Virus record (IMG/VR): IMGVR_UViG_3300045988_113959
Location: 31,643 to 95,642 of that record
Strand: one strand, 5' to 3'
Length of the DNA stretch: 64,000 nucleotides
From: a virus
A program made the position numbers and the translations under genes. Under the pieces are notes generated by a model. That model saw nothing but the letters and a program-made list of their open reading frames with translations, searched no databases and was not told where the DNA came from. Below, piece after piece: positions 61,213 to 62,274 of the stretch (position 1 is the stretch's first letter; each line of letters begins with the position of its first letter).

Positions 61213-62274
61213 TTAAACATAAGTGAGCTTTAGTTTATCTTTTAGTAAATTTACATTTTTACTAACAATTTTGTTTGCTATTTGAGAATCGCTAATAATT
61301 TTATCAATTATTTTCTGTTTATCCTTAACAGCCTTTTCTCGCTTTTCTCTAATATCTAACAAGAAGTTGTTTAACTCGTTAAACAATAGAGATTTACATA
61401 ACATATCACCAATACCGCCTTTTTTATAAGCTTCTTCAAGCTTATATAAAGAATCAACATCTTTTAAAGCTGGAAAAATCTTTGTAAAGTCAAATTCTAT
61501 AAAGTCTTGAATTGTATTTAGATACGTAAACACTACATTTCCTTCAACATTTCCAGGGTCTGAAATTTTCAAATGATTTGGGTCTGTGTACATTTTCTTA
61601 ATTTTTTCCCAAAGTTCTTTTTGGTTATCAGATAAATATATACAATTTCCAAAACTTTTACTCATCTTCTCATGACCATCTATACCTGGTAATCTACCAG
61701 CAATTTTATTTTGTGGTAGTAGTATTTCAGGCTCTTTAAAGATAATTTCATCTTTATTGATTTTTCTAACAATTCTCCTTGTCAGTTCAATCATTGGTCT
61801 TTGGTCTTCTCCAGCAGGAACTATATCAGTATTAAAACCTAATATATCTGCTGCTTGAGATACAGGATACATAAAGAAACCCAAAGGTGTACTTTCTTCA
61901 AATTTTCTTTGTTGAATCTCACTCTTTATAGTTGGGTTTCTTGACAAATCATTTATACTAACGTAATTTGTAAGTAATTGTGTTAGTTCACAAAGAGCTG
62001 GCACTTGACTTTGTAACACAAAGCTTAGTTTGTTATTACTCAACACATCTAATCCGACAGATATATAATCTAATGCAACTTCTATTACATTATCTTTTAC
62101 CTTTTGTGGATTGTCTATGTTATCAGTCAGCGCCTGCATATCTGCTATAAGAACATACATGTGTTCTGTATCTTCTTCAAATAGCAGATGGATTCTTTGT
62201 AATAATGAGCCTACAAAGTGACCTAAATGCAGTCTCCCTGTAGGCCTATCTCCAGTTAGTATTATTTTACCCAT
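61213..62274 (-). CDS. trpS: tryptophanyl-tRNA synthetase (class I)
   Basis: HIGH motif is TGRLHLGH and KMSKS is [41 protein letters not shown] closely parallels bacterial TrpRS YPxLMAADILLYxTDxVPVGEDQKQHxELTRD. The start is placed at ATG 62274 (MGKIILTGD...), 7 nt after the upstream TGA; the tracked ORF extends to 62331. Confidence 0.85.
   Translation of the reverse strand: [353 protein letters not shown]

Follow-up and report, generated by a model that had tools for sequence, protein, structure and literature searches.

A bacterial-type tryptophanyl-tRNA synthetase gene in a TAG-recoded crAss-like phage, probably auxiliary and without a part in TAG reading

The DNA analyzed here is a stretch of 64,000 nucleotides (nt) from the IMG/VR virus record IMGVR_UViG_3300045988_113959 (positions 31,643 to 95,642 of that record); it is called the window throughout, and positions count from its first letter. 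Its minus strand carries a gene for a tryptophanyl-tRNA synthetase (TrpRS) in a phage whose late genes read TAG as a sense codon. The open reading frame (ORF) begins with an ATG at 62274, ends with the stop codon at 61213-61215 and codes for 353 amino acids (aa). It matches Pfam PF00579 (E=3.6e-52, 178 bits vs. a cut-off of 21.1) and phrog_37857 (305 bits), and it scores above the curated cut-off of the NCBIfam equivalog TIGR00233 trpS (213.1 vs. 176.75 bits), with residues 2-347 of 353 covered. The protein belongs to a small clade of phage TrpRSs (76-93% identity; 84-93% among full-length copies), several of which lie on contigs of ~94-97 kb. The gene and its signature elements are as follows.

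61213..62274, minus strand: tryptophanyl-tRNA synthetase gene, 353 aa, standard code, no in-frame TAG
62218..62229, minus strand: HIGH signature, HLGH, residues 16-19, invariant in 7/7 phage-clade copies and 115/115 cellular homologs
61777..61869, minus strand: Trp-binding and GEDQ block (...GEDQ...ELTR), residues 136-166, by motif and alignment
within 61777..61869, minus strand: D143, the indole-binding Asp in SQAADIL, by alignment (roles of Escherichia coli residues from PMC12135181)
within 61777..61869, minus strand: E163, equivalent of E. coli Glu155, the reader of discriminator G73 (PMC12135181)
61654..61668, minus strand: KMSKS signature, residues 203-207, invariant in the phage clade
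61579..61596, minus strand: anticodon-binding loop KMYTDP, residues 227-232, with T230/D231 corresponding to E. coli T225/D226 (C35 readers)
61393..61419, minus strand: GGIGDMLCK, residues 286-294, with G289 corresponding to E. coli G271 (C34 contact), L292 and K294

The initial annotation had named the gene from the HLGH, KMSKS and AADIL/GEDQ/ELTR motifs, all of which are present, and the family score and the fold agree with that call. The pattern formed by D143 and GEDQ (residues 155-158) is identical in Bacteroidales TrpRS and in TrpRS II of Deinococcus radiodurans, which is the closest PDB match by sequence (E=1e-82; 43% identity; PDB 1yi8, 2a4m). An AlphaFold2 (AF2) model (pLDDT 74, pTM 0.77) has the expected TrpRS fold, consisting of a Rossmann domain, the CP1 insertion and a helical C-terminal domain; in a Foldseek search against the PDB, 50/50 top matches of the model are TrpRSs, with template modeling (TM) scores of 0.68-0.85, and the best-ranked one is again 1yi8 (TM 0.78/0.83). 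The motifs YTDP and GG(I/L)GD are common to the phage enzyme and the TrpRS-II-like subfamily, which includes the Prevotella/Bacteroidales TrpRSs. Compared with the Bacteroidales enzymes, the phage protein differs by a 3-residue and a ~5-residue insertion and lacks a C-terminal tail of ~17 residues; and whereas D. radiodurans TrpRS II is a second cellular copy, the gene in the window is viral. The ORF at 61213-62274 on the minus strand is an intact bacterial-type class Ic TrpRS.

In the E. coli TrpRS-tRNATrp co-crystal, C35 and A36 of the anticodon are read by T225, D226, S227 and K274, C34 is contacted by the backbone of Y270 and G271, and G73 is contacted by E155 (PMC12135181). The phage equivalents T230, D231, G289 and E163 are all kept, in the phage clade and in the cellular homologs alike, and for T230 and D231 conservation extends beyond the phage clade and the Bacteroidales homologs to most members of a set of 95 diverse representatives, drawn from 50%-identity clusters. 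The column aligned with E. coli K274 (position 292) is Lys in 115/115 Bacteroidales homologs and L/S/S/S/A/S/S in the seven phage copies. Loss of this C35-contact Lys (L292 vs. K274) was considered as a sign of altered specificity and rejected, because the column is variable among the 95 representatives (E 32, K 16, A 10, D 7, S 4) and the Lys that is conserved in the TrpRS-II-like subfamily, two residues further on in the motif G-D-x-x-x-K, is retained in the window as K294. The E. coli enzyme has a two-residue gap exactly at the 292-294 point of the alignment, and we infer that K294 is the structural equivalent of K274. With position 292 variable and K294 kept, the anticodon readers were treated as ordinary for the subfamily, a judgment in which the K294/K274 equivalence is a presumed element. 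The anticodon and discriminator residues inspected (T230, D231, G289 and E163) do not bear out the initial annotation's picture of a TrpRS diverged toward a CUA tRNA.

By its matches and gene order, the window belongs to a gut or oral crAss-like phage of the Crassvirales, subfamily Oafivirinae. Its 36-60 kb part shows 78% nt identity over 42% with Bohxovirus sp. PV686213, pieces match cr272_1, cr273_1, cr130_1 and cr131_1 at 75% identity, and the order of early and late genes is shared. Minus-strand replication genes encode a DNA polymerase, a primase, a helicase, a Sak4-like protein, an exonuclease and a sigma-like factor. When TAG is read as sense, the fragmented plus strand (1-33.2 kb) yields ORFs of 1561, 730, 697, 5684 and 1892 aa, every one of which contains 6-33 in-frame TAG, in agreement with the TAG recoding that had been proposed from the sequence. 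No comparable gain in ORF length is obtained when TGA is read as sense; TGA and TAA close the late ORFs, and ORFs end with TGA at 714 and 10524, so that the accompanying claim that TGA is still a stop also holds. The minus-strand early genes, TrpRS included, are essentially free of in-frame TAG and use the standard code. Early genes in the standard code and late genes in code 15 are the known crAss-like pattern.

181..33236, plus strand: TAG-recoded late gene block, 97 in-frame TAG in 11,040 codons, decoded as Gln

To read the meaning of TAG, the late proteins of the window, with TAG written as X, were compared by tblastn with those of relatives (labeled with L or P numbers, e.g., L125, L068 and P0005), and the codons opposite TAG were recorded. 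In the relatives L009-L011 (85% protein identity), TAG of the window faces CAA at 14-15 sites, CAG at 10-11, TAG at 8, GAA at 3-4 and a few other codons; CAA or CAG thus stands at 25/45 sites. TGG is opposite TAG at no site in any of seven relatives. When the counts were pooled with one locus per lineage, the 155 sense residues opposite TAG comprised Q 41, E 22, K 15, D 14, N 12 and W 0. A likelihood calculated from the substitution rows of the same alignments is best for Gln, with Glu 59 log units behind; of the 20 amino acids, Trp fits least well (-339 log units vs. Gln). Control counts were taken at true codons: Trp faces Trp at 143/201 sites, and Gln faces TAG 58 times. TAG makes up 19% of the Gln positions in the late genes. 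These alignments (Q 41 vs. W 0) show that TAG is a Gln codon in the late genes, as the initial annotation had assumed by default, although sequence by itself is also compatible with a low level of Trp admixture, which may occur at TAG.

The TrpRS gene lies in a slot whose content varies among close relatives. In the closest of these, L125, whose flanks are 91-96% identical at the nt level, the site is exactly empty, which defines the limits of the cassette.

61192..62283, minus strand: TrpRS cassette, as delimited by the empty site (window 62284 = L125 10277 and window 61191 = L125 10287, with 9 nt between)
62282..62560, minus strand: upstream flank of the slot, a conserved ORF of 92 aa without a Pfam or PHROG match
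61038..61114, minus strand: downstream flank of the slot, a RAGATH-12-like RNA independent of TrpRS (Rfam RF03149, 63.4 bits, gathering score 75)

The RAGATH-12-like flank is conserved in L068 and in TrpRS-less L125. Despite its empty site, L125 has a late ORF of 2001 aa with 27 TAG and the same 89-nt tRNA(CUA), and in L125/L055 the empty site goes together with TAG recoding and the same suppressor. L068 and L070 (93-95% nt identity) carry an unrelated ORF of 293 aa in the slot; neither this ORF nor the neighboring ORFs match Pfam or PHROG. TrpRS was not found in Bohxovirus or in cr272_1, and cr272_1 is nevertheless TAG-recoded. Internally deleted copies also occur: the P0005 copy, seen in at least four contigs or assemblies (94.7 kb), has an in-frame deletion of ~106 residues (68-173) that removes CP1, the Trp pocket and GEDQ, and the P0004 copy misses ~41 residues. 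TrpRS is thus missing, replaced or deleted in relatives, some of them still TAG-recoded, which argues that neither the phage nor the decoding of TAG depends on it.

Beyond the phage clade, which is represented in the databases by clusters of 24 and 45 members, the next-best matches are Prevotella/Bacteroidales TrpRSs with 51-54% identity. A tblastn search of 50,697 GenBank phage records returned no copy of the clade's gene and no Crassvirales record among its matches, the best of which reach at most 54% identity, and a pattern search of IMG/VR found one TrpRS-bearing contig only. Comparison of five intact phage copies gives dN/dS values of 0.06-0.15 for the whole gene (dS reaching 0.77), 0.03-0.09 for the catalytic half and 0.06-0.23 for the C-terminal helical domain. 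These ratios indicate purifying selection on TrpRS wherever it is intact. The gene has a GC content of 30.5% and a third-position GC content (GC3) of 20.6%, like other phage genes. Its phage-like composition and its ~48% divergence from any cellular TrpRS speak for a long residence in phages.

No tRNA(CUA) was found in the window by ARAGORN or Rfam; ARAGORN reports only a tRNA-Arg(UCU) and a permuted transfer-messenger RNA (tmRNA), to which Rfam adds an odd tRNA at 44552-44633. The CTA tRNA-like element that the initial annotation had singled out (~38010-38073, minus strand; without a D arm and with an AUCUAAC loop) was rejected as a suppressor: its fold is no better than that of shuffled sequence (z = -0.03), and a 95%-identical copy in the relative L013 has GGGTAC in place of the CUA loop. 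In the TrpRS-bearing relatives L006 and L007 and in L125, a tRNA(CUA) occurs upstream of the TrpRS slot at a distance of 9-10 kb, where it adjoins tRNA-Met and a dUTPase gene; this position corresponds to one past the end of the window (64000).

L125 925-1013, minus strand: amber suppressor tRNA(CUA), outside the window
L006 137-225, minus strand: amber suppressor tRNA(CUA), outside the window
L007 356-446, minus strand: amber suppressor tRNA(CUA), outside the window

Measuring 89-91 nt, the suppressor combines a long variable arm with a D stem and an anticodon stem of 6 bp each, and in the TrpRS-bearing relatives it has U35, U73 and C1-G72, all of them poor determinants for a TrpRS. Every difference between the L006 and L007 copies keeps base pairing. 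Among Rfam models it matches tRNA-Sec best, with 43.7 bits, which falls short of the gathering score (47). The anticodon stem-loop, ACGGU-CUCUAAA-ACCGU, is like that of a tRNATrp in which C35 has become U. Having U35 and U73, the suppressor is without the two major bacterial TrpRS determinants, those that T230/D231 and E163 read. In the close relative L069/L127, an unrelated 72-nt class I tRNA(CUA) has been swapped in at the same locus. L006 and L007, set against L069, had suggested that TrpRS goes with the long-arm "type B" suppressor; this was rejected, since L125 has type B without TrpRS. The tRNA-Sec- or allo-tRNA-like shape had also raised the idea that TAG is Ser; this was discarded as well, with Ser at 8/155 residues opposite TAG and 131 log units below Gln. 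The anticodon arm RCGGTCTCTAAAACCGYG is common to ~50 IMG/VR contigs, in which it occurs both on class I bodies (A1-U72, G73, CCA) and on long-arm bodies.

We consider it quite probable that the enzyme is an accessory, auxiliary TrpRS with an ordinary charging activity and no role at TAG. A bacterial-type class Ic TrpRS would have been captured long ago from a Bacteroidales-like host and would now occupy a variable cassette slot in the early, standard-code operon of an Oafivirinae crAss-like phage, as an accessory gene of the "moron" type. Expressed early from the minus strand, it would most likely catalyze the ordinary reaction, in which Trp, ATP and host tRNATrp (anticodon CCA, G73) give Trp-tRNATrp, and would add to the charging capacity of the host during infection. 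It would have no part in reading TAG, which would be decoded as Gln by the separate phage tRNA(CUA) outside the window, presumably charged by the host glutaminyl-tRNA synthetase (GlnRS). The identity and intactness of the gene, its purifying selection, the reading of TAG as Gln and the presence or absence of the cassette are direct observations. Aminoacylation activity, the substrate tRNA and the benefit to the phage belong to the predicted part of the mechanism, and purifying selection lends indirect support to the predicted charging of tRNATrp. The suggestion that the enzyme may simply boost the supply of Trp-tRNA, which had been offered initially as the default, is supported by the ordinary recognition residues and by TAG being Gln.

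Several points weigh against this interpretation. Trp accounts for only 0.95% of late-protein residues, a point against an obvious benefit of an extra TrpRS. A tRNATrp gene was found neither in the window nor within ~20 kb around TrpRS in the relatives, and the substrate would therefore have to be a host tRNA. The AF2 model is of moderate confidence only, with low values at residues 193-208 and 234-271. Moreover, 52/206 positions that are conserved in Bacteroidales TrpRS are changed in the phage clade, including the Lys at 292, and these changes may have altered the specificity for the tRNA or for a partner. The tRNATrp-like anticodon stem-loop of the suppressor also leaves room for some interaction with TrpRS.

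Other readings give TrpRS a part in the code switch. In the initial annotation, a CUA tRNA was suggested as a possible substrate of the phage TrpRS, with TAG then standing for Trp or for both Gln and Trp. It is true that CUA and CCA differ at position 35 only, that the suppressor of TrpRS-bearing relatives resembles tRNATrp in its anticodon stem-loop, that 19.4% of 180 phage tRNASup(CUA) score as Trp isotype although their genomes look like code 15 (PMC10879173), and that the phage clade is without the Lys at 292, which is invariant in Bacteroidales and aligned with the C35-contacting K274 of E. coli. However, Trp was seen opposite TAG at 0/155 residues and TGG in no relative, and Trp lies 339 log units below Gln. 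The residues that discriminate C35 from U35 (T230/D231) and the G73 reader E163 are retained, whereas the suppressor has U35 and U73; position 292 varies (E, K, A, D, S) among the 95 representatives and K294 is kept. In addition, the closest relative has the same suppressor and TAG recoding without TrpRS, the 94.7-kb lineage carries an internally deleted TrpRS, and in E. coli a tRNATrp(CUA) escapes TrpRS and becomes a substrate of GlnRS instead (PMC2965240). As the main decoding route this reading is refuted, and we regard it as extremely improbable; TAG columns that are never Trp, ordinary recognition residues and a TrpRS that is missing or broken in recoded relatives all speak against it. 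It also seems very unlikely that TrpRS, rather than being a plain auxiliary gene, is indirectly coupled to recoding as a fidelity or buffering part of a natural code switch. Such an enzyme could keep tRNATrp charged while avoiding titration by, or mischarging of, the abundant suppressor, or it could add minor Trp at TAG. The basis for this idea is the tRNATrp-like stem-loop on a tRNA-Sec-like body, together with the loss in the clade of the Bacteroidales-invariant Lys292 and the gain of Lys227 in the anticodon-binding loop.

Two other explanations leave the code aside and concern the reason for the presence of the gene. The diverged phage TrpRS could replace a host TrpRS that is shut down in infection, by a TrpRS-phosphorylating toxin kinase of the HipT type, by a TrpRS inhibitor or by host shut-off, with divergence making it insensitive. 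HipT inactivates E. coli TrpS. Such a role in counter-defense or host independence would fit a slot of the early operon in which genes are swapped in and out, as is typical for anti-defense genes, as well as the ~52% identity to host enzymes with 52/206 host-conserved positions changed, and purifying selection points to usefulness where TrpRS is present. On the other hand, KMSKS and the surrounding motifs are unchanged and no obvious resistance substitution is seen, no neighbor has a defense or anti-defense annotation in Pfam or PHROG, and the literature searched links no Bacteroidales defense system to TrpRS; we hold this explanation to be unlikely. Alternatively, the gene could be a recent, functionless hitch-hiker on its way to loss, as its absence from close relatives and the two variants with in-frame internal deletions might suggest. 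This is hardly compatible with a dN/dS of ~0.1 at dS up to 0.77 between intact copies, with catalytic motifs that are all intact, with the long residence implied by phage-adjusted composition and ~48% divergence from any cellular donor, or with the occurrence of the clade in dozens of database sequences, and a decaying passenger is in our view quite unlikely. What speaks for these two explanations, and for TAG as Trp, comes from context.

An auxiliary TrpRS can be set beside systems in which a synthetase does accompany recoding. Jade phages have TrpRS, release factor 1 (RF1) and a suppressor tRNA and read TGA as Trp (Borges et al., bioRxiv 10.1101/2021.08.26.457843), which matches the statement in the initial annotation that TrpRS goes with TGA-to-Trp recoding. 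The likeness consists in a standard-code phage TrpRS in a phage with a reassigned stop codon in its late genes. In Jade phages, however, the aminoacyl-tRNA synthetase (aaRS) matches the new meaning of the codon and adjoins the suppressor tRNA and RF1, upstream of lysis genes. In the window phage TAG is Gln and the aaRS is a TrpRS, so the cognate amino acid expected of a code-change module is lacking. Neither are the components clustered: the tRNA(CUA) of the relatives is 9-10 kb off, and no release factor domain was found in the large early ORFs. The aaRS and recoding do not co-occur consistently either, with the site empty in L125/L055, no TrpRS in cr272_1 and a deleted copy in P0005. The E. 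coli su+7-type suppressor (tRNATrp, CUA) resembles the phage suppressor in its tRNATrp-like stem-loop with C35 changed to U, and its charging with Gln by GlnRS (PMC2965240) agrees with TAG being Gln in the window phage; the phage tRNA differs in its 89-91 nt, long variable arm, 6-bp D stem, U73, C1-G72 and tRNA-Sec-like score. Phage-borne aaRS genes are already known from large phages, and PHROG 37857 contains this TrpRS type. The trpS genes of huge and jumbo phages (Microcystis phage MaAM05, Acinetobacter phage MD-2021a; PHROG 37857) are likewise auxiliary translation genes, but their genomes are 250-735 kb and the enzymes 26-50% identical, whereas the window phage is crAss-like and ~95 kb. 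In the literature searched, we found no report of TrpRS in crAss-like phages.

The relatives also show what else lies at the slot. Just downstream of it, they carry a gene whose small product matches the C-terminal domain of ribosomal protein L7/L12 (PF00542, 30.8 bits vs. a cut-off of 25.9); this gene is missing from the window through a deletion at ~60838.

L068 5344-5790: L7/L12-domain ORF (PF00542)
L006 11953-12249: L7/L12-domain ORF (PF00542)
L007 11998-12237: L7/L12-domain ORF (PF00542)
L073 11113-11559: L7/L12-domain ORF (PF00542)

Bohxovirus has full-scoring RAGATH-12 (104 bits) and RAGATH-15 (226 bits) matches (L001 12766-13055, 13589-13667), and the orphan RAGATH motifs of Rfam appear to be early-region RNAs of crAss-like phages. 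A twister-P1 ribozyme-like match is present in both genomes (window 57540-57621, minus strand, and L001 17760-17840; 34 and 36 bits, below the gathering score of 67), with 78% identity between the window and Bohxovirus. The late region of Bohxovirus (L002 = PV686213 1-50000) is fragmented even when TAG is sense, with a longest ORF of 530 aa and TAA ends, and its late annotation in PV686213 consists of short "hypothetical proteins"; this fragmentation points to sequencing frameshifts or to a further peculiarity.

The window is rich in other RNA elements. A permuted, two-piece tmRNA is encoded at 54047-54361 on the minus strand (Rfam RF04321, 68 bits, above the gathering score of 47), and the tag peptide read by ARAGORN, GNFNVVDYTCVA followed by a stop, is the same in L072, L073 and L125. 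A tmRNA is annotated in cr272_1 as well. The element in the window is a tmRNA that a stop-codon-recoded phage itself encodes. The tRNA at 44552-44633 (minus strand), which ARAGORN missed, scores 53 bits with Rfam; its D loop is enlarged by 13 nt, its T stem is bulged, and its anticodon loop, CUAACAA, contains the anticodon AAC with A34. In the relatives L020 and L055 there is a tRNA-Ile(AAU), likewise with A34. Further tRNA-like elements lie at 37225-38630, 44160-44240, 45470-45550 and 46150-46260, all on the minus strand; they have good GGTTCGA T arms and acceptor stems, with D or anticodon arms missing or odd, and could represent remnants of tRNAs or signals for processing. In L012, L013 and L055, compensatory changes preserve the T stem of the element at 38550-38626, and the element at 37520-37610 has a four-arm fold (z = -2.9). 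A repeated 20-mer, TTAGAACGCA(A/T)(A/T)TAAATAGC, occurs at 37894-37913, 38068-38087 and 38445-38464 (minus strand) and is conserved in many relatives. It stands directly upstream of tRNA or tRNA-like genes, e.g., before tRNA-Cys in Bohxovirus, and is probably a promoter. Finally, three minus-strand hairpins (56820-56833, 57018-57031 and 57385-57398) have in common the loop GGTTCG(T/A)GAGAATA on differing complementary stems, where 0.04 loop copies are expected by chance.

The value of the finding lies mostly in a negative result: an aaRS gene in a stop-codon-recoded phage is not to be assumed to be part of the code-switch machinery. Relatives in which the site is empty, the cassette is replaced or TrpRS is internally deleted are natural "knock-outs" that are still recoded, and the amino acid is mismatched. 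At the same time, TrpRS is added to the accessory gene pool of crAss-like (Oafivirinae) phages, and a clean cassette slot with known flanks is defined. If it is true that TrpRS does more, in counter-defense or in buffering, the availability of near-identical genomes with and without TrpRS would make its role directly testable.

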